DNA of 26,724 nucleotides from Aquificales bacterium (GTDB taxonomy: Bacteria; Aquificota; Aquificia; Aquificales; Aquificaceae). Made by a program: the position numbers and the translations under genes. Numbering within the stretch: the stretch's first letter is position 1; every line of letters starts with the position of its first letter. The DNA lies in the NCBI GenBank assembly GCA_015491275.1, contig WFWF01000012.1, forward strand, positions 1 through 26,724, read 5' to 3'. The notes beneath the pieces were generated by a model. It made no database searches, was not told where the DNA came from, and saw only the letters and a list, made by a program, of their open reading frames with translations. Positions 5,707 to 19,308 of this stretch are shown here, in pieces.

Positions 5707-7056
5707 ATGGAAAGGGTTATACTGTGTAGTGCTTCGGGAGATTTGGAGATAAGAGGTATTAAAAAATACGGAGAAGTACCCGAAGACATAAGCGAGCATG
5801 TTATCCTGCTTGATGTTGATACTCTCGGCTTATCTTCCGTGCCAGATATTATTGAGGACAATATCGTTATAGCTCTTACGGGTATTCAACTCCCGGGTTA
5901 TACCATGAAGTTAATGAGTATCGGATTCTTTGATGTTATAAATATTCCCGCTGATGAGGAAGAAATTGAGGAGAAGGTGATAGAAGCTTTAAGAATTCTT
6001 GAAGAAACAAGGGTTTACACATTAATATCCTCGGAAGATATACCGAAGGGTTATCTGTGTGAAGAGCTGTGTTCCATAGTCGGTAATCCTAAGAATATGG
6101 CGGAAGCCATAAGACTTGCAGGTAAAGCGGCTTCCCTTGATGTCCCTGTTCTTATAGCCGGAGAAAGCGGTACGGGTAAGGAGCTTTTTGCGCGGGCGAT
6201 ATGGAAGCTATCAAAGAGGTGGCAGGGACCTTTTGTTGCAATAAATTGTTCAACCATACCAGAAAATCTTTTTGAGGCTGAACTCTTCGGTTATGAAAAG
6301 GGTGCATTTACCGGGGCTGTATCGCGGAAAAAAGGATTAATTGAGGAAGCCAATCACGGCATCCTCTTCCTTGACGAGCTTGGAGACATGCCTCTATCGG
6401 TGCAGACGAAACTTTTAAGGGTTTTGCAGGAGAAGAAGATAAGGCGTGTAGGCGGAAAGGAAGAGATACCTGTTGATGTGAGAGTAATAGGGGCTACCAA
6501 TAGGGATCTTGAAGCGATGGTAAGAGAGGGTAAATTCAGAGAGGACCTATTTTTTAGGCTTAATGTTATAAATATATATTTACCACCCCTGAGGGAAAGA
6601 AAAGAAGATATACCTATATTGCTTGAGTGTATGATAAAGAAATTTTCAAGGGAATACAGTAAAAGGATAAAAGGCTACACAAGAGGATTTTTGGAAACAC
6701 TTCTTGAGTACAATTGGCCCGGAAATGTAAGAGAACTGGAGAATGTAGTTAAGAGAGCTATCGCGTTATCTTCAAAAAATATACTTTCTGCTAAGGATAT
6801 TCCCGATCTTAAGGAGATTCATTATTCCCATAGGGAAACAAAGGGTTGGAAGGATGCTTTAAGGGAAGAGATAAAGGTGAGGCTTTCAATAGGTGAGGTA
6901 GATATATATGATAAGGTAATGAATGAGGTTGAAAAATTGCTTATAGAAGAAGCTTTCAGATTTTCCGGTAATAATCAGCTTAGGGCATCAAAACTTTTAG
7001 GTATAAATCGCCTTACGCTCAGAAGAAAATTGGAAGCTATACATCAGAACTTGTAA
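5707..7056 (+). CDS. Sigma-54-dependent transcriptional activator (NtrC family) with an atypical receiver-like N-terminus
   Basis: Walker A GESGTGKE, intact GAFTGA, Walker B LFLDELGDM, RVIGATNRDL, YNWPGNVREL and Fis-type HTH NQLRASKLLGINRLTLRRKL. The ORF track starts at TTG 5680; ATG 5707 is preferred because 5660-5697 looks regulatory. The 3' end overlaps the convergent mtrB by 13 nt. Confidence 0.92.
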   Translation: MERVILCSASGDLEIRGIKKYGEVPEDISEHVILLDVDTLGLSSVPDIIEDNIVIALTGIQLPGYTMKLMSIGFFDVINIPADEEEIEEKVIEALRILEETRVYTLISSEDIPKGYLCEELCSIVGNPKNMAEAIRLAGKAASLDVPVLIAGESGTGKELFARAIWKLSKRWQGPFVAINCSTIPENLFEAELFGYEKGAFTGAVSRKKGLIEEANHGILFLDELGDMPLSVQTKLLRVLQEKKIRRVGGKEEIPVDVRVIGATNRDLEAMVREGKFREDLFFRLNVINIYLPPLRERKEDIPILLECMIKKFSREYSKRIKGYTRGFLETLLEYNWPGNVRELENVVKRAIALSSKNILSAKDIPDLKEIHYSHRETKGWKDALREEIKVRLSIGEVDIYDKVMNEVEKLLIEEAFRFSGNNQLRASKLLGINRLTLRRKLEAIHQNL

Positions 7057-9170
7057 GTGAGCTTGCTGTATATCATGGTAACATTGTAGTCAGGAATTAA
7101 AGCGCCACCTGTAAAGTAGTTACCGTCTTGTCCGTAAGCATAATTTTCAAACCCTTCTTTATTGTAATCCTTGAATCGGAAGGATTCCCAGAATACTCCG
7201 AGATCTACATGTAAGAACTTTCTTACCTTGTATTTGAAGTTAAGATTTAAAGTATGCCTTTCGGAATCATCAACAGTTGCTAAAACTGCAAAACCGGATG
7301 GCTTTATTGTTCCGTCTGTCATTGCGTAGGCGTATTTGAGATCCATATCAAGCTTTTGGGGGATAACCTTGAAATTCACACCAACTCCTAAGGTGCTGTC
7401 TTTATCAATTCCTTCAACTATCCAAGCCTTATTGGGATCCCTTTCTTCCCATCCTTTTTGTTTATTTCTAAATTCTTCATGTATATAATAAGCGTTTAGG
7501 GTAACCCTTTTTACTGGAACATAGTCCACGTCTATACCATAGATTATATGTGAGTCTTCAAGAAGACCAACGGGTGAGTTTACGAAGGAATCCCTACCCA
7601 CTATTATATGGGTTGTAATTATGAGCGGTTTTTCATAGGATCCTTCCTTACCAGTTGCCATTCCGAGATATTTCATGGGGAACATGGTTACTATAAGTTG
7701 CAGTCTGTCTCTGTCCCTGTCCGCTTCATCGTACTTCCAGTATTTATAAACTATGGGATCGTCAACCCTGTATCTGCCCCTTTGAACTGATCTTATATAG
7801 GAGGATCTTATATCAAGCCACTTCCAAGGTATCGGTTTTACATCAAGGTTAACTGTGTATATTCTGTCAACAGATCGTGTTACGACTCTAACGGTGGGTT
7901 TATAGTAATAAGAGGGATCAACCACCTCGTAAATTCTTCTATCTTTTCTATCAATCGTATATCCGAAGGATAATTTCATGGAGTCACTTATCCTGTATCC
8001 CATGTCAAGCCATGTTGTGTTTGTATTAAAGCTAAGTGGGAGATTAATTGCGGGTATTTCGTGCCATCTGACATCTATCTTGACATATCCCGGAAATACA
8101 ACTATGGCTGTTTTATTGTTCCAGTCATAAAATCGGTGACGGAATTTAATATCAAATCGCTTTAATGGTGTTGAAACCATTGTAAAATCATAAACTGTAG
8201 ATTCCACCTTCATCTTACCTGGTTCTGGCGGATCGGGAGGATTATTCTCATATTGTGTACCCGAGTAAGCATTTTGATTTATTGTGTATGGAAGCAGTTT
8301 GTCATTTTGGACAAATTCTCCCTTGGAGAAAACCGCCGTTATTTTTGTATCAAGGGGTAATTTCCACAGGTTTCCAGTAAAAGATATGTTATTGTGGGTT
8401 GTATTAGGGTATATATCAAGCAGTCCCCTTGGTGCCCCGTTCGATTCTGGATTATCCCACTTTAATTCTTGTATATTATTTTTGAATTCCGAGTAGTAAT
8501 AGCTGCTGTATAGTTGAAAGTTTTTCCAATTAAATACTGTAATAAATCTTATATCCGTAATATCATAGTCTATGGGTTCCGGGACCTCTATTACGCTGTG
8601 TCTTATACCGCTCGTCTGGACCGGATCAACGCCGAAATAGGACAAAACGCCGAAGGGTCTTGTACCTTTTCTCTTTTCATTTATAAACTCTATTCTGAAG
8701 TTAAGGAGTGGATCAAAGGCAACAATGTCAAAGTAAACCTTTAACCAATCTCTCATCAGACCCATATCTATATAAGAGATTCTTCCGTTATTCCATTTTA
8801 GGTCACCTGTTCCAACTCCTCTGAAACCAAACCTTACATTCTTTGAAAATAGATGAGGTACTTTGTCGTATATAACTTCAAGTTTGAACTGTCCTATTTT
8901 GTTAAAAAGAAGATGTATCTTTTGATCATTTAAACCTATGTTTGTAGCATCAAGCCTTACATCTATTTTTTCTTTCCATCTGAACTTCATCTTTACATCG
9001 CCTGTAAAACCGTCCCTTAAATCTCTGTATTCATTAAGCTTGGAGGAATCCTCATCTCCAGAAAGATTTCTGTATTCAACTCCTACACTGCCATCCAGGG
9101 TATTGTCCTGCGCCAATACTACACCTGCCCCCAAGCTCAGTAGGGCGGACATAAGTATGCTTTTTTTCAT
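7044..9170 (-). CDS. mtrB: MtrB/PioB-family outer-membrane beta-barrel porin
   Basis: 708 aa; signal peptide; N-terminal SSKLNEYRDLRDG and KYDEADRDRDRL motifs typical of MtrB/PioB; amphipathic beta strands; C-terminal YKF; directly downstream of an MtrA-like cytochrome. Confidence 0.85.
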   Translation of the reverse strand: MKKSILMSALLSLGAGVVLAQDNTLDGSVGVEYRNLSGDEDSSKLNEYRDLRDGFTGDVKMKFRWKEKIDVRLDATNIGLNDQKIHLLFNKIGQFKLEVIYDKVPHLFSKNVRFGFRGVGTGDLKWNNGRISYIDMGLMRDWLKVYFDIVAFDPLLNFRIEFINEKRKGTRPFGVLSYFGVDPVQTSGIRHSVIEVPEPIDYDITDIRFITVFNWKNFQLYSSYYYSEFKNNIQELKWDNPESNGAPRGLLDIYPNTTHNNISFTGNLWKLPLDTKITAVFSKGEFVQNDKLLPYTINQNAYSGTQYENNPPDPPEPGKMKVESTVYDFTMVSTPLKRFDIKFRHRFYDWNNKTAIVVFPGYVKIDVRWHEIPAINLPLSFNTNTTWLDMGYRISDSMKLSFGYTIDRKDRRIYEVVDPSYYYKPTVRVVTRSVDRIYTVNLDVKPIPWKWLDIRSSYIRSVQRGRYRVDDPIVYKYWKYDEADRDRDRLQLIVTMFPMKYLGMATGKEGSYEKPLIITTHIIVGRDSFVNSPVGLLEDSHIIYGIDVDYVPVKRVTLNAYYIHEEFRNKQKGWEERDPNKAWIVEGIDKDSTLGVGVNFKVIPQKLDMDLKYAYAMTDGTIKPSGFAVLATVDDSERHTLNLNFKYKVRKFLHVDLGVFWESFRFKDYNKEGFENYAYGQDGNYFTGGALIPDYNVTMIYSKLTYKF

Positions 9171-9181
9171 TCCATCCCTCC

Positions 9182-10273
9182 TTAACGCTGGAAGAATTTA
9201 CCCGATGGATGGTTACTGCCGTGAATCTGATTGTGACAGTTGAGGCAAGAACGATAGAACATTCTGTTATTGGAATGTGCATATATAGACTGGTGTAGTT
9301 TATCTTGAGGAATACCGAATTGCCTCGTCGGGTGTTCAAGATCAAAGTTAGGTGCACCGCCTATATTGTTTGCGTGGCAATCTGAACATCTTTTCGGGAT
9401 AATATCGGTTGCATGACATCTTTGACACAAGTATGGCACTTTTGCTATAAGTAACTTGTCGTGATTTGATCCGTGGGGTGTGTGGCAGTTTATACATTTT
9501 TCAACAACAGGTGGATGTTCCCAAAGGAAGGGACCCCTTTTCTCCGCGTGACATTGGTAACATTTTTCATTAATACGGTTAGCATTTAACAGTCTGTCTG
9601 AGACCGCACCGTGCGGATTGTGACAATCTGTACAAACTACCTTTCCTTCCCTTATGGGATGATGGGAGGGTTTTGCAACCTGTGCTTTTATTTGCTTGTG
9701 ACATTGGAAGCATACTTGGGGTATAGTTGGGAACTTAAGATGTTTGGGATTGTCTTGACCGTCGTAATGGATCCTGTGGCAGTTTGTACAGGCTAAACCC
9801 TTTTGTTCATGTATGCTACCGTGCCACATTATCCGCGGTAACCTTAAAGGAAACCTTGCGTGACATTGGAGACAAACTTCATTTTTAACTTCCACAGGTA
9901 TTGGAGATTCAGCAGCAGGATTTATAACACCGCCTATACCCCTTCCTCCGCCAGCTGCTACATGGGGTTTACCAGTTTTCCCCGGAAAGTGGCATGTTTC
10001 ACAATCAAACTTTGCCATGGGAGCTCTCGGATCTTCCCTGTTAAAGTGGGGACTTTTTATATACTCTTTGTATCTGTCAGGATGGCAATTAGCACACACT
10101 TCCGCTGCCAGGTGGGCATCTCCCTGAAAAGAGAAGACCATACCGAGATCCTTAATTATGGGGAGCCCGTCAGGAGCAACCTCAAGGTCTTGGGCTATGC
10201 TGTTATTATTTATAAGCAGAATGTAAACAGCGGTACCAACCAGTATTATTAAAAGAAAGGCAATCTTTTTCAT
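9182..10273 (-). CDS. mtrA: MtrA/DmsE-family multiheme c-type cytochrome with 11 CxxCH motifs
   Basis: CANCH, CETCH, CLQCH, CTNCH, CFQCH, CTDCH, CYQCH, CINCH, CQRCH, CSDCH, CLNCH; family motifs CYQCHAEKRGPFLWEHPPV and CLNCHNQIHGSNHPSG; N-terminal signal peptide. Confidence 0.88.
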   Translation of the reverse strand: MKKIAFLLIILVGTAVYILLINNNSIAQDLEVAPDGLPIIKDLGMVFSFQGDAHLAAEVCANCHPDRYKEYIKSPHFNREDPRAPMAKFDCETCHFPGKTGKPHVAAGGGRGIGGVINPAAESPIPVEVKNEVCLQCHARFPLRLPRIMWHGSIHEQKGLACTNCHRIHYDGQDNPKHLKFPTIPQVCFQCHKQIKAQVAKPSHHPIREGKVVCTDCHNPHGAVSDRLLNANRINEKCYQCHAEKRGPFLWEHPPVVEKCINCHTPHGSNHDKLLIAKVPYLCQRCHATDIIPKRCSDCHANNIGGAPNFDLEHPTRQFGIPQDKLHQSIYAHSNNRMFYRSCLNCHNQIHGSNHPSGKFFQR

Positions 10274-10335
10274 TTCCTACTCCCCTCTTTTGTTTGACAT
10301 CATAATTATATAATCTTTCTTTTACCCTCATGGTT

Positions 10336-11145
10336 TTAATTTTCCTTCTTTTTTTCTTTCGGTTTTACATGGCATCTTGTGCAATCAAATGTAGGAAATG
10401 CAACCTTTCCGTGGCATCTCCCGCACCACTTTCCCTGCCATATCTCCACCATGGAAATGGGGTTTGCCCCTGCGGAAGGTATAAATATCTTTGGATGGCA
10501 GTTGGCACAACCGAGCCAGAAAGTATGTATCCAGTGAGGGAAAACAACATCTTTCATGAAATCCGCCTTTGCTACTATTACCACATCCAAATCAAAGGGT
10601 TGTTCCGGTATGGCTTCTTGATCAGTAGGATATATTTTGCCTTTTGGCTTTATAAGACCCTCCTTTGCAGCTTTTGCCCAATCAATGAATCCGAGCTTAT
10701 CCCTCGGCAGTATTTTTAGAGCTTCATATTGTTCCCTTTGGGCTTTCTTAGAATCATACCTGTGACATCTGTCACAATAAATGGGCTCCCATGCTATTAC
10801 ACCATTGTGGCATTTTCCACAGAACTGCCCTTCCATTATCTTTTTCATATTTATATCATTTGCCCCCTTCTTCATAATAAATATGTCTTCGTGACATACT
10901 TTACATTTGAACCTTATCCTATGAAACCAGTGAGGGAATATAACTGGCTGAACTCCTGCCTTTTTCATACTTTCTATTTTGCTTTTCATTATTATGTCAC
11001 CGTATTCCGGGGGAAGGTCAGCCTTTTTTGCCTTTAAGATGTTGTAGTAAACGTCCCATATATCTTCCTCCCCTGGTGCAAAAGAAATTAGAACAATAAG
11101 TAAGAATAGGGGTCCCCCTACAAGGACCCCCAGCTTTCTAACCAT
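10336..11145 (-). CDS. Hexaheme cytochrome c with two c7-type triheme domains (paralog B)
   Basis: 269 aa; 6 CxxCH (CKVCH, CGKCH, CDRCH, CANCH, CGRCH, CTRCH); each domain has FPHWxH and a GAN/xxM Met-ligand-type segment; hydrophobic N-terminus. Confidence 0.88.
   Translation of the reverse strand: MVRKLGVLVGGPLFLLIVLISFAPGEEDIWDVYYNILKAKKADLPPEYGDIIMKSKIESMKKAGVQPVIFPHWFHRIRFKCKVCHEDIFIMKKGANDINMKKIMEGQFCGKCHNGVIAWEPIYCDRCHRYDSKKAQREQYEALKILPRDKLGFIDWAKAAKEGLIKPKGKIYPTDQEAIPEQPFDLDVVIVAKADFMKDVVFPHWIHTFWLGCANCHPKIFIPSAGANPISMVEIWQGKWCGRCHGKVAFPTFDCTRCHVKPKEKKKEN
10393..10434 (+). repeat. 42-nt exact repeat shared with 11217-11258 (paralogous cytochrome genes)
   Basis: AGGAAATGCAACCTTTCCGTGGCATCTCCCGCACCACTTTCC occurs at 10393-10434 and 11217-11258 and encodes GKWCGRCHGKVAFP in both paralogs. 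Confidence 0.85.
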
Positions 11146-12062
11146 TATTCCTGAGTTTTGTTTTCAGCAGCGGAGGTTTCCTTGGGCTTCACATGACATC
11201 TTGTACACTCAGTAAGAGGAAATGCAACCTTTCCGTGGCATCTCCCGCACCACTTTCCTTGGGCTATCTCTACCATTGTCATGGGATTCTTACCCCTTTC
11301 TGGTACAAAAATCTTTGGATGACAAACATCACATCTCAACCAGTAAGTATGTATCCAATGGGGAAATACTACATCATTGACATAATCACTTTTTGCCTCA
11401 ATAACTATATCAAGGTCCATTATAGGGAATTCCTCTTCATTGGGATCAAGAGTTCCCTTGGGGTTTATGTAACCTTCTTTTACCGCCTTTGCCCAATCAA
11501 CGAGACCGTATTTATCAACGGGAAGTCCCGCTTCCCTCAACACCTGAGGGTGCCAGTCTTGCCCTTCTTCGTAATACTGACTCGCAGGCTTGTTGGGATC
11601 ACCTGTTCCTGCAAGCTTCTTTGTTAAACCGCTTAGATATATGGGGTTGTTCGGGTCATTCGGGTCATATTTCTTACCTTTTTCTATCTTCACAACTTTT
11701 TTATCTTCATCGGGAGGTTCATATCTGTGACACCTGTCACAGTAAATAGGCTCCCATGCTATTACACCGTTGTGACATTTGCCGCAGAACTCTCCTTCCA
11801 TTATCGCTTTCATAGTAATATCATTTGCTCCCTTCTTGAGAATAAATATCTCTTCGTGGCACACCTTACACTTGAATCTTATCCTATGGAACCAGTGCGG
11901 GAACACTACGGGCTTTACACCTGCCTTTTTCATGCTTTCTATCTTGCTATCCAAAACAAGGTCACCGTATTCAAGATCCGTACTGCCGACAAAAGTAAAT
12001 GTACCTACTATGAGCGTTCCAAGAATTATTACAAAAAATATCATTGATTTCCCCAATTTCAT
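11145..12062 (-). CDS. Hexaheme cytochrome c with two c7-type triheme domains (paralog A)
   Basis: 305 aa; 6 CxxCH (CKVCH, CGKCH, CDRCH, CDVCH, CGRCH, CTRCH); SD GGAGGTGG; hydrophobic N-terminus; stop overlaps the next start (TAATG). Confidence 0.88.
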   Translation of the reverse strand: MKLGKSMIFFVIILGTLIVGTFTFVGSTDLEYGDLVLDSKIESMKKAGVKPVVFPHWFHRIRFKCKVCHEEIFILKKGANDITMKAIMEGEFCGKCHNGVIAWEPIYCDRCHRYEPPDEDKKVVKIEKGKKYDPNDPNNPIYLSGLTKKLAGTGDPNKPASQYYEEGQDWHPQVLREAGLPVDKYGLVDWAKAVKEGYINPKGTLDPNEEEFPIMDLDIVIEAKSDYVNDVVFPHWIHTYWLRCDVCHPKIFVPERGKNPMTMVEIAQGKWCGRCHGKVAFPLTECTRCHVKPKETSAAENKTQE

Positions 12063-12095
12063 CTCATACCACCTCCGTTCAAAATGCTCCTTTTT

Positions 12096-12124
12096 ATGAT
12101 ACAGATTAGTAACCTCTATGTCAA
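12096..12124 (-). promoter_or_regulatory. Sigma-70 promoter upstream of the hexaheme-hexaheme-mtrA-mtrB genes
   Basis: Minus strand TTGACA (12124-12119), 17-bp spacer, TATCAT (12101-12096). Confidence 0.75.
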
Positions 12125-12143
12125 TATCGGATTTAACATTTTT

Positions 12144-12473
12144 CTATTTACCCCTGTGACATCTATCACAGTGGAAGGCGGGCCAAGCCTTTACACCGTT
12201 ATGACATGCTCCGCATGCTTTACCTTCCATTATCTTTTTCATCGTTATCTTATTAGCCCCCAATTTTGGTTTGAAAAGCTGGTTGTGACAGGAGTTGCAC
12301 TTCATTGATTCCGCATGTAACTTGTGGGGAAACACCACGGGTTTCATTCCCGCCTTTGATCTGCTTTTAAACTCTCTCTTGAATATGATCACATCATGTT
12401 TAAAATCCTTGGTAAAAGAAAACATGGGCATCGTAAGAAGAAGAACGACTGCATAAACTGAAATCTTTACCAT
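12144..12473 (-). CDS. Small periplasmic c7-type triheme cytochrome
   Basis: 109 aa; signal peptide; FPHKLH; CNSCH, CGACH, CDRCH; homologous to the N-terminal domain of the hexaheme paralogs; SD AGGAGG. Confidence 0.88.
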   Translation of the reverse strand: MVKISVYAVVLLLTMPMFSFTKDFKHDVIIFKREFKSRSKAGMKPVVFPHKLHAESMKCNSCHNQLFKPKLGANKITMKKIMEGKACGACHNGVKAWPAFHCDRCHRGK

Positions 12474-12545: not shown

Positions 12546-13559
12546 ATGGCAAGGAGGGATCTTCTGCTTAAAAGTATTCGTCAAGAGAAGATAGAGAGAT
12601 ATCCCGTTTGGCTTATGAGACAAGCGGGGAGATATATGCAAGCCTATAGGGAACTCAGGGAGCGTGAGAAGGACTTTTTGAGCTTTTGTAAAAATGTGGA
12701 TCTTGCAATAAAAGTTTCTCTTCTCCCTCTTGAGATACTTGATGTTGATGCAATCATAATATTCTCGGATATACTTGTACCCCTTGAGGCTATAGGTATA
12801 AAGGTAAAGTTTATAGAGGATAAAGGTCCTGTTCTTGAATGGGACGGTAATCCTGAAAGTCTGAAAAAGTTTAATGCTAAGGAAACGGAATTCGTATATG
12901 AAATTATAAAGGGAGTTAAAAGGGAGCAAGATGAGGTTCCTGTAATAGGCTTTGCGGGGGCACCTTACACCTTAGCCGCCTACGCCATTGAGGGACATGG
13001 GAGCAAAAATTTTAGGAAGGCGAAAACATATATGTGGGAAAGGGAAGAGGACTTTGGAAGTACCATGGAGATTATAACGGAGACGCTGAAAGTTTATATT
13101 GAAAATCAGATAAGGGCGGGAGCTGATATTATACAAGTTTTTGATAGTTGGTTGGATTCATTGCCCGTTGTTGATTTTGAAAGTATGGTTAAACCCTATT
13201 TGATAGAACTATTTTCCTATCTCAAAAAAAATTATGACACCCCCCTTATATACTTTTTCAGGGGGTCTTCCTCGTTCTTTGATAAGCTGAAAGGTATTCC
13301 TTGCGATGTTCTATCTGTTGATTGGTCCGTAGATATGGCGGAAATTATGAGAAGAACTGGAATAACATTGCAGGGAAATTTTGATCCGTCTCTTTTGTAT
13401 TCAAAGATGGAAGTAATAGAGAAAAAAGTGAATGATTTCCTTAACAGTTTACCGAGAAAAACTGGATATATATTTAATCTTGGTCACGGACTTGCCCCAG
13501 ATATGTCTCAGGAGAAGGTAAAATTTCTCGTTGATACGGTTAAATCCTTCAAATTATGA
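12546..13559 (+). CDS. hemE: Uroporphyrinogen decarboxylase
   Basis: PVWLMRQAGRYM, DAIIIFSDIL, IGFAGAPYTLAAY, IQVFDSW, LQGNFDP and IFNLGHG motifs. Confidence 0.96.
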   Translation: MARRDLLLKSIRQEKIERYPVWLMRQAGRYMQAYRELREREKDFLSFCKNVDLAIKVSLLPLEILDVDAIIIFSDILVPLEAIGIKVKFIEDKGPVLEWDGNPESLKKFNAKETEFVYEIIKGVKREQDEVPVIGFAGAPYTLAAYAIEGHGSKNFRKAKTYMWEREEDFGSTMEIITETLKVYIENQIRAGADIIQVFDSWLDSLPVVDFESMVKPYLIELFSYLKKNYDTPLIYFFRGSSSFFDKLKGIPCDVLSVDWSVDMAEIMRRTGITLQGNFDPSLLYSKMEVIEKKVNDFLNSLPRKTGYIFNLGHGLAPDMSQEKVKFLVDTVKSFKL

Positions 13560-14683
13560 AGGTTATTACTGAAGGGACAGCCAAGATCCTGTTGCCATCT
13601 CTTCCTGAAAATATAAGCTCTGATATGCCCGTTTTCTACAACCCGAGGATGAGGGTAAACAGGGATTTTACCGTTCTTATGGTCAGATATCTTACAAAGG
13701 TTCTGGGCAGGTGTCTTAAGATAGCCGATCCCCTTGCTGGTAGCGGTGTCAGGGCAATAAGGATACTTAAGGAGACGGATAGAATTGATATTGTTTGTGT
13801 GAACGATAGAGACAGCAGGGCTGTGGAAAATATAAAGATGAACTTTGAAGAAAATTGTATAAAGGAGAATAGATATAGAATATTCCACGAGGATGCTAAT
13901 ATATTCCTGAGAAAGGAAGGGAAATTTGACTATATTGATGTGGATCCCTTCGGTAGCCCTGTAGGATTTATTGAATCCGCAATTTTGTCACTCAAAAAGG
14001 GAGGTATGCTCGGTGTAACAGCTACGGACACAGCACCCCTTTCTGGTACATATCCGGATGTTTGTATAAGGAGGTACGGATCCAAGCCTCTTAAAACCGA
14101 ATTTTACCATGAGACAGGTATAAGGATACTTATATACAAGATTTTTTCACAAGGTGCCCAGTTTGATTTTTCCCTTACACCTGTTTTTTCTTACAGTTAC
14201 CTTCATCACTTCAGGGTGTTCCTTGTTAAGGATAAGGGTGCAAAGCTGACTAATAGGAATATCCATAAGAACACGGGCTATATTGTCTTTTGTCACGCTT
14301 GCCTGTACAGGTCTTGTTTGAGGGACAAGTGTAGTATGCTGAAATGTCCTTTATGCGGTGAGATGCTTGATTACGCAGGACCTCTATGGATAGGTCCGAT
14401 TTTCCATAGGGATGTTGTAGATTATTTTAGTAAAGACATAGGTTCTGTAAATGTTTCAAGGGAAACATATAAGATTTTGAATTTAATTAAAGAGGAGTCA
14501 AAAGTAAATGTTCCCTTTTTTTATACTCTCTCTTCGCTGGCTAAGGTATTGAAGAAGGGCAGAGTTCCGTCATTAAATAAAGTTCTGCGGGAATTTGAAG
14601 GGGTAAGGACTCACTTTTCCGGAGAAGGTTTTAGGACACGGATGGATTATAAGGAATTAAGAGAAAAATTTAGTGTATTATAG
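13556..14683 (+). CDS. trm1: tRNA (guanine-26/27-N2)-dimethyltransferase, archaeal-type Trm1
   Basis: PVFYNPRMRVNRD, DPLAGSGVRAIR, DANIFL, IDVDPFGSP, GVTATDTAPLSG, HETGIRIL, a CHAC...CPLC Zn pair and GPLWIGPI; ATGA overlap with hemE. Confidence 0.92.
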   Translation: MKVITEGTAKILLPSLPENISSDMPVFYNPRMRVNRDFTVLMVRYLTKVLGRCLKIADPLAGSGVRAIRILKETDRIDIVCVNDRDSRAVENIKMNFEENCIKENRYRIFHEDANIFLRKEGKFDYIDVDPFGSPVGFIESAILSLKKGGMLGVTATDTAPLSGTYPDVCIRRYGSKPLKTEFYHETGIRILIYKIFSQGAQFDFSLTPVFSYSYLHHFRVFLVKDKGAKLTNRNIHKNTGYIVFCHACLYRSCLRDKCSMLKCPLCGEMLDYAGPLWIGPIFHRDVVDYFSKDIGSVNVSRETYKILNLIKEESKVNVPFFYTLSSLAKVLKKGRVPSLNKVLREFEGVRTHFSGEGFRTRMDYKELREKFSVL

Positions 14684-18055: not shown

Positions 18056-18898
18056 TTAACCCCTTAAGATAAAAACATCAATAAAGACGATACAAAGATA
18101 AATGATACTTATATAACCGTTTACTGTAAAGAACACTTCCCCCTTAATATGTTTCCGTTGATATATAAAAAGAAAGAGAAGGATGAACATACTGAAGAAA
18201 TAAAAAGTACTGAGGCGATTATCAATAACACCTACCGAAAGGAGGGAAATAAATGTTATGGTATGGCAAAGCCCGGATACATGTATGGCTTTCCTTATTC
18301 CTATCTTTACGGGGAGGGATTTCAGACCCACTTTTCTATCAAATTCGTAATCTTGCAGTGCATAAAGTATATCAAATCCAGCGACCCAGAAAGCCATACC
18401 TATTCCCATTACAGCGGACAACAAGGATATGCGGGAATTCAACGCTACATCTATAGCTACAGGTATTAAAAAATAAACAGCCCCGAGGATGAAGTGAGGC
18501 AAGTAGGTAAACCTCTTACCGTAAGGGTAAAGGATAAGAAGACCTATAACAACGGGAGAAAGGAGGGAGGCAAGTTTATTGAGAAAGTATGCTGTGATCA
18601 CAAAAAGAGTTGATGAAAATACCGCTATAAGGTAAGCTTCCCTTTTGGTTACACGACCGGAGACAAGGGGCCATGAGCTTGTTCGCGGATTTAGTCTGTC
18701 AAAAGGTTCGTCTATTATTCTGTTTATAGCCATTCCTGCGGTCCTTGCAAAGATGAGTGCAAGTATTATTAAGATTATTTCCTTTAAACTTGGCGGACTT
18801 TCAGTAAGGAGTATAAGGCTTGAAAGTCCGAAGGGTAATGCAAATATGGTATGTTCAAATCTGACAAGCTCAAGATATGCCCTTATCCTTTCCATCAT
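18056..18898 (-). CDS. ubiA: UbiA-family prenyltransferase (MqnP-like, naphthoquinone pathway)
   Basis: [29 protein letters not shown] and YALQDYEFD aspartate-rich motifs; multiple TM segments. The exact substrate is an inference. Confidence 0.85.
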
Positions 18899-19308
18899 AT
18901 ATCAAATATGACTTCTCCTATGTATTCTCCGTTTATCTTTTCAATCTTCAATCTGTGATATGTTGCTGCTTTTATGACAAGCTTTGATTTATGTCTTTCC
19001 GGATCAAACTTACCCCCTTTAAGCATTACTTTTATTTTATTTTTGTCCAACTCAAGTACTTTACATTCTTTTGCGATAAAGTTTTCCGTTTCGTGTATTA
19101 TAAGTGCTTCATTTATTATATCCGCAAGGGCGTAGGGTAGGGGTGACGATACCTCTATTATATGTTCAATTTCCTTATTTATGTCTTCTACATCCGTTAT
19201 TTCATTGAAGGCGGCAATTATGGATTTACATATAAGTTCATTAAGATCCTTAGCCCTTACACGGATACCAGCATCCGCGGTAATGTCGTCTATTGTTTCA
19301 TAGAACAT
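18895..19308 (-). CDS. Archease
   Basis: 137 aa; N-terminal YETIDDITADAGI and C-terminal IKAATYH...VIFDI archease motifs. Confidence 0.92.
   Translation of the reverse strand: MFYETIDDITADAGIRVRAKDLNELICKSIIAAFNEITDVEDINKEIEHIIEVSSPLPYALADIINEALIIHETENFIAKECKVLELDKNKIKVMLKGGKFDPERHKSKLVIKAATYHRLKIEKINGEYIGEVIFDI

Follow-up and report, generated by a model that had tools for sequence, protein, structure and literature searches.

The Aquificales are known as oxidizers of H2 and sulfur, and the best-known c7 cytochromes of the GSU1996 and PpcA types are those of Geobacter, an Fe(III) reducer. Among the closest described systems, MtoAB and PioAB lack both MtrC/OmcA and CymA/NapC (PMC5566968). 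The Uet cluster, first described in Tenderiales (10.1101/2022.05.06.490989), is found in some Gallionella (PMC10734462), as the sequence-only reading of this DNA had correctly stated for an undecahaem cluster in Gallionellaceae. Expression of the Uet trihaems is among the highest of any genes in the cathode-oxidizing Ca. Tenderia, and in expression they group with ACIII and an oxidase (PMC5371394).

Here we describe a five-gene cluster from an Aquificales bacterium that likewise has neither MtrC/OmcA nor CymA/NapC. We have little doubt that it encodes a real trans-outer-membrane conduit. Its most likely use is electron uptake from Fe(II), minerals or a conductive chimney, and to this whole reading we assign a probability of roughly 0.55. 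The barrel-cytochrome pair is already known; new here are the eleventh haem and the attached c7 relays in hydrothermal-vent Aquificales.

A 26-haem cluster with an MtrB/PioB-family porin

The cluster spans 12473-7044 on the minus strand of the window, i.e., the whole stretch of 26,724 nucleotides that was analysed. Five co-oriented genes with 3+6+6+11 CxxCH motifs and an MtrB/PioB porin had been claimed, and the open reading frames lie exactly where that claim had placed them: the 26 motifs, counted on the open reading frames, fall in four cytochrome genes, and the fifth and last gene encodes the haem-free porin. The features are as follows.

12144..12473, minus strand: single-domain c7-type trihaem cytochrome, 109 aa, 3 CxxCH, hydrophobic N-terminal signal (PF14522, 56 bits; TIGR04257, 74.5 bits)
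12096..12124, minus strand: sigma-70-like promoter match, TTGACA-17-TATCAT, 11/12 (consensus match only)
11145..12062, minus strand: hexahaem cytochrome A, 305 aa, 6 CxxCH, two c7-type trihaem domains joined by a linker of ~110 residues (TIGR04257, 134 bits, 2 stretches)
10336..11145, minus strand: hexahaem cytochrome B, 269 aa, 6 CxxCH, a paralogue of A (TIGR04257, 124 bits, 2 stretches)
9182..10273, minus strand: undecahaem cytochrome of the MtrA/DmsE family, 363 aa, 11 CxxCH (TIGR03508, 254.2 bits)
9338..9403, minus strand: insertion of 22 residues (residues 291-312) with an extra haem motif, CSDCH (alignment with 23 relatives)
7044..9170, minus strand: MtrB/PioB-family barrel, 708 aa, no Cys, signal peptide ending AQD (PF11854, 234 bits)

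The undecahaem gene immediately precedes the porin gene, with an 11-bp gap between them, and the start codon of hexahaem B overlaps the stop of hexahaem A by one base. The promoter match falls within the 81 bp that separate the first gene from the second and, judged by its consensus alone, may serve the four genes downstream as an internal promoter; sigma-70-like sites in the region are no more numerous than in shuffles, and no sigma-54 -24/-12 match was found upstream of the cluster. Housekeeping genes surround the cluster, and no dedicated regulator was identified. The rest of the contig holds no further open reading frame with at least two CxxCH motifs.

The motif total and the family matches were confirmed to be far beyond chance. 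Family models and matches to solved structures verified each of the identities proposed from the sequence (c7 relays, an MtrA-family undecahaem and an MtrB/PioB porin). The porin matches PF11854 (MtrB_PioB) over positions 3-635 of 635 (E 4.5e-69; cut-off 23), and its score with NCBIfam TIGR03509 is 179 bits, below the cut-off of 240. It is only 18% identical to MtrB, which a single-sequence phmmer search misses; a profile of the porin against MtrB (6R2Q_B) gives E 5.1e-87. We classify it from these matches as a divergent member of the MtrB/PioB family. An AF2 model of the porin (pLDDT 79.7) has 26 long strands, and its top Foldseek match is again 6R2Q_B (E 1.4e-35, TM 0.77/0.84), the next ones lying near TM 0.42. 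A 26-strand MtrB-type barrel and an MtrA-type cytochrome are strongly supported, and the barrel is predicted to sheathe the cytochrome.

Haem sites, relay domains and their conservation

The 363-aa cytochrome exceeds the cut-off of TIGR03508 (DmsE-family decahaem; 192.2 bits) and matches the solved MtrA (6R2Q_A) with a phmmer E of 3e-63. Ten canonical CxxCH motifs align in order with those of MtrA (6R2Q) and of 23 relatives, and one motif is additional. This eleventh motif (residues 296-300, nt 9374-9388) lies between canonical haems 9 and 10, in the 22-residue insertion that is missing from 23/23 of the nearest relatives aligned. Ten motifs are the rule among the best homologues (115/120), and eleven occur in this cluster only (0/119 others). 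The insertion with its extra motif, and two extra histidines that follow it closely (residues 326 and 333), are unchanged in the orthologous clusters L001, L030 and L032. An AF2 model of the undecahaem (pLDDT 47.5) was too poor for placing the eleventh haem, and the position of its site, between the two haems that come closest to the cell surface in the solved Mtr structure, is strongly supported.

The three upstream genes encode secreted cytochromes with five GSU1996-type c7 domains and 15 haems. All three products match PF14522/TIGR04257, well above the TIGR04257 cut-off of 40, with three haem motifs per domain. The best solved relative of hexahaem A is GSU1996 (3OV0; E 8.5e-38); PpcA reaches only E ~2e-4. 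Each c7 domain has five histidines and a conserved methionine, a set that fits two bis-His haems and one putative His-Met haem, as in GSU1996. In a domain tree, the N- and C-terminal domains of hexahaem B pair with those of A, and three domain types (N, C and S) are resolved, the same as in stand-alone c7 triads. Among the loci sampled, only this one joins a c7 array to an MtrAB pair: no MtrAB lay within 10 kb of the other c7 loci (0/76), and no c7 array lay at the other MtrAB loci (0/80).

Near-identical loci are present in MAGs of Aquificales bacterium, in agreement with the earlier Aquificota-like label. Synteny of the cluster extends to L001, L030 and L032, which include a further, more distant lineage, within a conserved neighbourhood of 22 kb. 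None of the 26 haem sites has been lost in these lineages, at saturated synonymous divergence. Relative to L030 and L032, the cluster proteins are 72-91% identical and the flanking housekeeping proteins 60-79% (5/6 at 60-71%). Relative to L001, dN/dS is 0.007-0.071 in the cluster, with the minimum of 0.007 for hexahaem A, and 0.042-0.144 in the flanks, at similar dS. The function of the cluster is under selection, and the cluster is better conserved than its housekeeping neighbours.

PF11854 was found in 4/178 Aquificota genomes, all of one genus, and in none of 33 other genera, making this cluster the only trans-outer-membrane haem conduit found in Aquificota. The nearest relatives of the undecahaem outside the lineage are 49-54% identical. 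In a tree of 91 MtrA homologues, the Aquificales clade sits on a long stem beside a metagenome sequence and Vicinamibacteria, outside a clade of Shewanella and betaproteobacterial sequences (97*); no authentic Sideroxydans/Gallionella MtoA and no PioA were included. This placement and the one-genus distribution of PF11854 speak for the conduit as a putatively acquired trait.

Genome background and the direction of electron flow

We searched four genomes of the genus, namely the window's own (70% complete) and three that are 99% complete, and the absences rest mainly on the latter three. MtrC/OmcA (TIGR03507) and NapC/CymA (PF03264), previously said to be missing from the window, were indeed not found there, nor in any of the four genomes (0/4 for each family). 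The accompanying statement that no quinol-oxidizing partner lies in the window is correct; a quinone-linked ACIII-type complex and bc1 are encoded elsewhere in the genome. ACIII, rare in the phylum, stands beside an aa3 oxidase in the genus, and this ACIII/Qrc-like complex includes a pentahaem subunit with a c7-like domain. The small subunit of group-1 [NiFe] uptake hydrogenase was found in 0/4 genomes (a sister genus has 3 copies), hydrogenase large-subunit matches in the genus were weak only, and Sox genes are present. Since the searches of the genus revealed neither a respiratory nitrate reductase nor a bd oxidase, O2 is the only terminal acceptor recognized, which a donor-side role of the conduit would fit.

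We suggest the following route. Because there is no MtrC-type surface cytochrome, the modified outer end of the undecahaem would itself contact an external redox partner directly. The c7 proteins would connect the wire's inner end with the cytoplasmic membrane by carrying electrons, and at this membrane the likeliest quinone-linked partners would be the ACIII/Qrc-like complex and bc1, a link to c7 that is pure inference. Electrons from Fe(II), metal-sulfide minerals or a conductive chimney wall would most likely travel inward, first along the conduit and then along the c7 relays, to the aa3 oxidase and the quinone pool. For an Aquificales lineage that is aerobic, bears Sox and is poor in hydrogenases, such inward flow would add an electron donor or replace one.

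Extracellular electron transfer, as proposed from the sequence alone, is supported through the identity of the parts, whereas the direction stays an inference: the organism is uncultured, and there are no expression, protein or physiological data. As the main direction we favour inward, at slightly better than even odds, and all the arguments for it are indirect. First, the absence of MtrC/OmcA and CymA/NapC resembles MtoAB/PioAB and, by this analogy, would point to uptake. Second, so would the likeness of the c7 relays to Uet-type ones (51-58% identity). Third, ACIII stands beside aa3, and bc1 is also present, in a genus with no group-1 hydrogenase small subunit and with O2 as its only recognized acceptor. 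Against this, the Sox genes imply that the lineage is not in need of an extracellular donor, and ACIII normally oxidizes quinol and would serve outward flow equally. Gene content cannot fix the direction, because MtrAB-type conduits are reversible in principle (PMC10734462).

Outward flow is possible, if doubtful. Under anoxia or micro-oxia, sulfur compounds would be oxidized via Sox, and ACIII would oxidize quinol and pass electrons through c7 and the undecahaem to Fe(III)/Mn(IV) oxides, elemental sulfur or a partner cell, i.e., dissimilatory metal reduction or interspecies transfer. ACIII, by default a quinol:cytochrome c oxidoreductase, could stand in for the missing CymA, and with aa3 as the only terminal oxidase recognized, an anaerobic outlet would be useful in a fluctuating chimney wall. 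The best-studied MtrA/MtrB complex (6R2Q) is a reductive conduit, and the nearest solved c7 relatives (3OV0) come from an Fe(III) reducer. However, the surface reductase of the MtrC/OmcA type that Shewanella needs for mineral reduction is missing, no uptake hydrogenase was found as a source of low-potential electrons, and the MtrA tree puts the undecahaem outside the Shewanella-containing clade. The homologous c7 relays of Uet are tied to electron uptake (PMC5371394; 10.1101/2022.05.06.490989).

In an improbable reading, a DMSO-type or other molybdoenzyme whose gene lies elsewhere would reduce a soluble substrate outside the cell or in the periplasm, fed by the cluster as a DmsEF-like conduit that acts on neither minerals nor electrodes. 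The best NCBIfam family of the undecahaem is named 'DmsE family', but the TIGR03508 subfamily model is broad and takes in MtrA and MtoA as well. Homologous c7 arrays in hydrothermal Gammaproteobacteria do have a PsrABC-like molybdoenzyme and a NapC-type cytochrome as neighbours; here, neither the window nor the conserved 22-kb syntenic neighbourhood contains a molybdoenzyme, and the molybdopterin proteins found in the genus are a NasA-like one next to NarK, ActB, and a PhsA-like one in which the N-terminal TAT portion of its models is missing. Weaker still is a non-respiratory role as a store of electrons or a redox buffer in the periplasm, in surface Fe(II)/metal detoxification or as a decaying acquired relic, for which the housekeeping surroundings without a dedicated regulator and the proposal of c7-domain polymers as periplasmic capacitors in Geobacter can be cited, but a barrel-sheathed haem wire is unnecessary for a purely periplasmic store, and a relic is excluded by very strong purifying selection and the retention of 26/26 haem sites across lineages despite saturated synonymous divergence.

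Electron uptake can also be put in a bolder form, which we offer only tentatively. The lineage would have abandoned membrane-bound uptake hydrogenases and would now be a thermophilic 'rock- or electricity-eater', with a hybrid system of Uet-type c7 relays on an MtrAB chassis and a wire lengthened by the eleventh haem to reach the surface without MtrC, possibly together with genus-specific multi-copy surface lipoprotein cytochromes; electrons from a conductive sulfide chimney or Fe(II) minerals would pass to ACIII, bc1 and aa3 and on to O2. If true, the cluster would provide a first concrete set of candidate genes for an electrolithoautotrophic way of life in Aquificota.

Comparison with known conduits and relays

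In DmsEFAB, a DmsAB-type molybdoenzyme is encoded with the conduit, unlike in the Aquificales cluster. The MtrAB core of Shewanella MtrCAB (6R2Q) is among the closest known systems: its MtrA shares ten canonical haem motifs with the Aquificales cytochrome, MtrB, like the porin, is a 26-strand barrel, and the order of the cytochrome and porin genes is shared. The Aquificales cluster differs in having three attached c7 genes and, anywhere in the genus, no MtrC/OmcA or CymA; its cytochrome differs in the inserted eleventh motif and in falling outside the Shewanella-containing clade. MtoAB/PioAB (Sideroxydans, Gallionella and Rhodopseudomonas; PMC5566968) are likewise two-component systems that do without an extracellular cytochrome and have a periplasmic relay in the cluster and, in their hosts as in the Aquificales host, ACIII or bc1 and an oxygen reductase. 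The relay is the monohaem MtoD in MtoAB and the HiPIP PioC in PioAB, whereas here it consists of c7-type multihaems with 15 haems; in addition, there is no CymA or MtoC here, and the cytochrome has eleven haems, not ten.

The relays belong to the same domain family (TIGR04257) as the GSU1996-family c7 polymers of Geobacter (3OV0) and the stand-alone c7 triads of uncultured Deltaproteobacteria/Thermodesulfobacteriota, and share domain types N, C and S with the latter. The Aquificales hexahaems have two domains per protein with long linkers, whereas Geobacter polymers and triads have four or one.

Whether the locus is homologous to Uet had been left for checking, and the answer differs between its parts. 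As comparator we used the Uet-type cluster of a Novimethylophilus MAG (L235). An undecahaem homologous to UetJ was rejected: BLASTP against L235 gave only patchy matches at haem motifs (best 34.7 bits, 24% over 124 residues), and the UetJ-type protein has ~900 aa against 363 here. A barrel homologous to UetC was rejected as well (hhalign probability 0.4%; the UetC-like protein has no PF11854 match). By Pfam, none of the window's open reading frames encodes a tetrahaem UetA, a SurA-type PPIase UetB, a cupredoxin UetF or NHL-repeat UetH/I. The c7 domains, in contrast, are homologous, including the motif after the signal peptide; the 109-aa trihaem is 51% identical over the domain to its Uet-type counterpart, and hexahaem A 58%. 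In both systems, an 11-haem cytochrome goes with a barrel in the outer membrane and with several GSU1996-type c7 trihaems in the periplasm (UetD/E/G in Uet), and the hosts of both have ACIII and bc1. On these comparisons, we interpret the likeness to Uet as that of a common relay module on a different outer-membrane chassis.

The conduit genes and the eleventh haem

The sequence-only reading had described five co-oriented genes with 3+6+6+11 CxxCH motifs and an MtrB/PioB porin, and every detail proved correct when ORFs, motifs and family-model matches were examined:

12473–12144, minus strand: c7 trihaem cytochrome (3 CxxCH; PF14522/TIGR04257)
12062–11145, minus strand: first hexahaem c7 cytochrome (6 CxxCH; two TIGR04257 domains)
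11145–10336, minus strand: second hexahaem c7 cytochrome (6 CxxCH; two TIGR04257 domains)
10273–9182, minus strand: undecahaem MtrA/DmsE-family cytochrome, 363 aa (11 CxxCH; TIGR03508)
9170–7044, minus strand: MtrB/PioB porin, 708 aa (0 CxxCH, without any cysteine; PF11854)

The components of a haem wire sheathed by a barrel, with periplasmic multihaem carriers attached, are all encoded here in intact form and are strongly conserved. What we say about their function, expression and complex formation included, is genomic inference. The c7 domain in the three small proteins scores 74–134 bits with TIGR04257 (cut-off 40) and is also matched by PF14522, and the 363-aa protein scores 254 bits with TIGR03508, the DmsE/MtrA decahaem family (cut-off 192). 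PF11854 (MtrB_PioB) matches the porin end to end (234 bits, E 4.5e-69); TIGR03509 reaches 179 bits, below the stricter NCBIfam cut-off of 240. A single-sequence phmmer search with the porin found no match in the PDB and a profile was required: built from the porin and its relatives, it matched MtrB of the solved Mtr complex (6R2Q) at E 5e-87. The AF2 model of the porin (pLDDT 79.7) has 26 long strands, and its top structural match is the same protein (6R2Q_B; TM 0.77/0.84), followed by 22-strand transporters at ~TM 0.42.

Besides the cluster genes, which are separated by 81, -1, 62 and 11 bp, we found no further multihaem ORFs on the contig. On either side lie housekeeping genes (sulfate assimilation, a convergent sigma-54 activator, hemE, trm1, pepA, cstA and ubiA). 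hemE (haem biosynthesis) is divergent from and adjacent to the cluster in all lineages, an arrangement of uncertain significance. The 81-bp gap contains a strong sigma-70-like match; promoter-like sites across the region are not commoner than in shuffles. Control by the neighbouring sigma-54 activator was considered and rejected, as its gene runs convergently to the cluster, upstream of which no sigma-54 promoter (-24/-12) match was found. Separately, the window encodes Trm1 (a tRNA m2,2G methyltransferase) and archease, at 13556–14683 and 18895–19308, both of which are characteristic of archaea and, among bacteria, of a few deep lineages such as Aquificota.

Ten canonical motifs of the undecahaem are in register with solved MtrA (6R2Q_A, E 3e-63) and with the 23 nearest relatives. 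The extra motif, CSDCH, falls inside a 22-residue insertion (residues 291–312) between haems 9 and 10. Among the 120 best homologues, ten motifs occur in 115, nine in four, and eleven in this cluster only. The insertion and two additional downstream histidines, which are candidate distal ligands, are invariant across divergent lineages. Since the C-terminal haems sit at the extracellular mouth of the 6R2Q complex, the extra haem site would, by analogy, be near the outer end of the wire; whether it lengthens or branches the wire was not modelled. An AF2 model of the undecahaem, made from an alignment with its nearest relatives, had a pLDDT of 47.5 and was unusable for placing the eleventh haem. 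An MtrA gaining a haem at its outer end would be a natural experiment on wire extension without a surface cytochrome.

Distribution, selection and origin

The window corresponds to contig C12 of a MAG of 1.10 Mb and 70% completeness, and near-identical loci occur in three records of Aquificales bacterium MAGs. A search of 178 Aquificota species genomes found the MtrB/PioB family in 4/4 genomes of the window's genus and in none of the 33 other genera. Porin identity drops from 80–96% inside the lineage to 29% outside, and the cytochromes share 49–54% identity with relatives outside the lineage. The five genes and their 22-kb neighbourhood recur in GCA_054012535.1 and an ENA assembly, whose housekeeping genes are 60–79% identical to those of the window (five of six at 60–71%) and whose cluster proteins are 72–91% identical, with all 26 motifs retained. 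Against a closer genome (locus L001), dN/dS is 0.007–0.071 for the cluster and 0.042–0.144 for the flanks, at similar dS. From the synteny, the higher identity and the lower dN/dS than in the flanks, we infer that the cluster is old in the lineage, inherited vertically within it and more constrained than its neighbours.

Base composition gave no hint of recent transfer (cluster G+C 0.37–0.44 vs ~0.40 for the window). A tree of 91 MtrA homologues gives the Aquificales clade a long stem and places it next to one metagenome sequence and Vicinamibacteria, outside a well-supported Shewanella and betaproteobacterial clade; the porin of that metagenome sequence is the closest porin outside the lineage. 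The trees contained no authentic Mto and Pio references and no root. The hemE neighbourhood in the nearest other genera (genomes G010 and G084) is not syntenic and insertion boundaries are undefinable; therefore, transfer is argued from distribution and trees. The simplest reading is a single acquisition from outside the phylum, from a donor that was not identified.

The c7 relays and the Uet system

The best solved relative of the hexahaems is the Geobacter dodecahaem GSU1996 (3OV0, E 8.5e-38), with PpcA at only E ~2e-4. Every c7 domain contains five histidines plus a conserved methionine, a set consistent with two haems of bis-His and one of His-Met ligation; this assignment is inferred from GSU1996. 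A domain tree resolves three types, and the window's array comprises one S-type protein and two N+C-type proteins. The same pattern is found in three-gene c7 triads of many uncultured Deltaproteobacteria/Thermodesulfobacteriota MAGs, which stand alone between housekeeping genes that name no partner. It is also found in c7 arrays of hydrothermal Gammaproteobacteria, whose neighbours are a Psr-like molybdoenzyme and a NapC-type cytochrome. No c7 array accompanies any of 80 MtrAB loci taken from named genomes, and no MtrAB lies within 10 kb of any of 76 c7 loci from outside Aquificales; the combination is unique among the sampled loci. Single-domain c7 genes occur in 26/28 genomes of another Aquificota family and form a separate clade in the domain tree. 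Two MAGs of Deltaproteobacteria (L228, L229) also encode 11-haem proteins beside c7 genes; these are large and unrelated to MtrA and were set aside.

Both kinds of c7 locus have features of their own. The stand-alone triad is very widespread (L165–L217, e.g., L167:8950–10330), encodes proteins of ~130, 220 and 115 aa with a CxxxxCH site in the third, and lies between aspS and pgl in two loci examined. The gammaproteobacterial clusters (L140, L141, L153–L164; Polarisedimenticolaceae, Sedimenticola and others) are conserved and encode a PsrABC-like molybdoenzyme, a NapC-type cytochrome, a monohaem c and three or four multi-domain c7 cytochromes, interspersed with unannotated 130–400-aa proteins. 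Two of these MAGs carry the isolate prefix S012 or S140, and one Aquificales relative is isolate S012_57.

Uet was defined in cathode-oxidising Tenderiales as uetABCDEFGHIJ, i.e., a tetrahaem (UetA), a PPIase (UetB), a 28-strand barrel (UetC), three c7 trihaems (UetD, UetE and UetG), a cupredoxin (UetF), two NHL-repeat proteins (UetH and UetI) and an undecahaem (UetJ) (10.1101/2022.05.06.490989). It was later reported from six Gallionella (PMC10734462), and on cathodes its trihaems showed some of the highest expression of any genes (PMC5371394). Our comparator was a Novimethylophilus MAG locus (L235) with the same gene content; a scan with a c7 profile yielded no Tenderia, and no Tenderia sequences entered the comparison. 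The sequence-only reading had pointed to Uet and asked whether the two clusters are homologous. For the c7 relays this held, their domains being 51–58% identical, including the motif after the signal peptide, but it failed for the rest: similarity to the ~900-aa Uet undecahaem is patchy and confined to the surroundings of the haem motifs, and a profile comparison (hhalign) of the Uet barrel with the porin of the window showed no similarity (probability 0.4%). The window contains none of the Uet accessory genes. The comparator locus itself (G179:C50:43000–62900) is a complete Uet-type cluster that includes a tetrahaem, a SurA-like PPIase, four c7-containing genes, NHL-repeat proteins, a 692-aa protein without a Pfam family (probably the barrel) and a 942-aa 11-haem ORF; the same MAG also encodes an MtrAB pair (L054).

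Respiratory background and direction of electron flow

Absences were assessed by family searches of MAGs, namely that of the window and three others of its genus that are 99% complete. The lack of MtrC/OmcA and CymA/NapC, first noted for the window alone, extends to all four, in which bd oxidase and respiratory nitrate reductase were not found either. The group-1 [NiFe] hydrogenase small subunit (PF14720) was not found in any of the four (G000, G085, G086 and G087), against three copies in a sister genus (G010); for the large subunit, the window's genus has only weak matches. Such a pattern is unusual for Aquificales. The genus has SoxY, a bc1-type cytochrome b and an ACIII/Qrc-like operon, ACIII being present in only 7/178 Aquificota genomes. 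The operon encodes a pentahaem subunit with a c7-like domain, a fused 1020-aa B subunit and an NrfD-like subunit, and directly downstream lie COX3, SCO1, COX2 and COX1 of an aa3-type oxidase. A predicted lipoprotein cytochrome family is, within Aquificota, limited to the window's genus (4/178 genomes, at least five matches per genome).

G000:C96:3448–18134 (L012, L117) and G086:C17 (L152): ACIII and aa3 locus, with a second, divergent COX1-like gene after COX1
G000:C20:279–2819 (L008), C26, C81, C119, C125 and C142; G086:C42, C39 and C43 (L145, L148): lipoprotein cytochromes

These lipoproteins are ~850 aa long, with 6–8 single-haem repeats of ~95 aa (CGxCHG...W..TV.RM) and a C-terminus made of an Asp/Gly-rich stretch and an FN3-like part. 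They are candidate surface or periplasmic partners of the conduit. The gene neighbours examined are housekeeping, a Protein Atlas search gave sub-threshold leads only (0.80–0.84), and co-occurrence inside one genus amounts to one evolutionary event only. Elsewhere in the genus, the UvrB N-terminus at L122:3285–4505 (G086:C10) is split by an intein (N-terminal splicing region, 34 bits) and adjoins a 941-aa PhsA-like molybdopterin protein without the TAT-signal part of the family models.

We propose that the wire would span the outer membrane, its modified outer end touching an external partner directly, and that the c7 proteins would bridge it to ACIII and/or bc1. Electrons drawn from Fe(II), sulfide minerals or a conductive chimney wall would then move inward and reach the quinone pool and the aa3 oxidase. 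We favour this direction, with a probability of roughly 0.55–0.6, on four grounds. First, there is no surface cytochrome, as in MtoAB/PioAB. Second, the relays are Uet-type. Third, ACIII, bc1 and an oxidase are combined, as also in Tenderia and neutrophilic Fe(II) oxidisers (PMC5566968; 10.1101/2022.05.06.490989). Fourth, an uptake hydrogenase and any non-O2 acceptor are apparently missing. Set against these grounds, the opposite direction, with Fe(III), Mn(IV), S0 or a partner cell receiving the electrons, is still a serious rival, possible if doubtful, in that conduits of this kind can run both ways and the usual reaction of ACIII is quinol oxidation. We found no suitable molybdoenzyme, which leaves little support for a DmsEF-like role in which the conduit serves a soluble-substrate reductase, and the selection data exclude a relic.

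The cluster is a concrete, conserved and testable gene candidate for extracellular electron transfer in Aquificota, where to our knowledge the process has not been described. Hydrothermal chimney walls carry electric currents, and we know of few thermophile genes for tapping them. Electrotrophs are reported to have been enriched from chimneys (e.g., PMC8292307, PMC9751133). Thermostable MtrAB variants may also interest bioelectronics.

MtrAB-type pairs are common and automatically annotated. We found no published description of this cluster; the sole prior mention found is a count of seven PioA/MtoA-like database matches in 'Aquificae', given in one line without comment (PMC10654088). New here are an eleven-haem MtrA variant, a Uet-type c7 relay joined to MtrAB, and their setting in one uncultured, hydrogenase-poor, ACIII-bearing Aquificales lineage. 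Porin-cytochrome systems are thus modular, the periplasmic c7 relay of Uet being combinable with the barrel and wire of MtrAB. Because only the c7 proteins are alike, whereas the undecahaem and barrel are dissimilar and the accessory genes missing, the cluster is, as judged by sequence comparison, not Uet but a hybrid that places a periplasmic relay of Uet type on the chassis of an MtrAB pair; this chassis has reached eleven haems independently.
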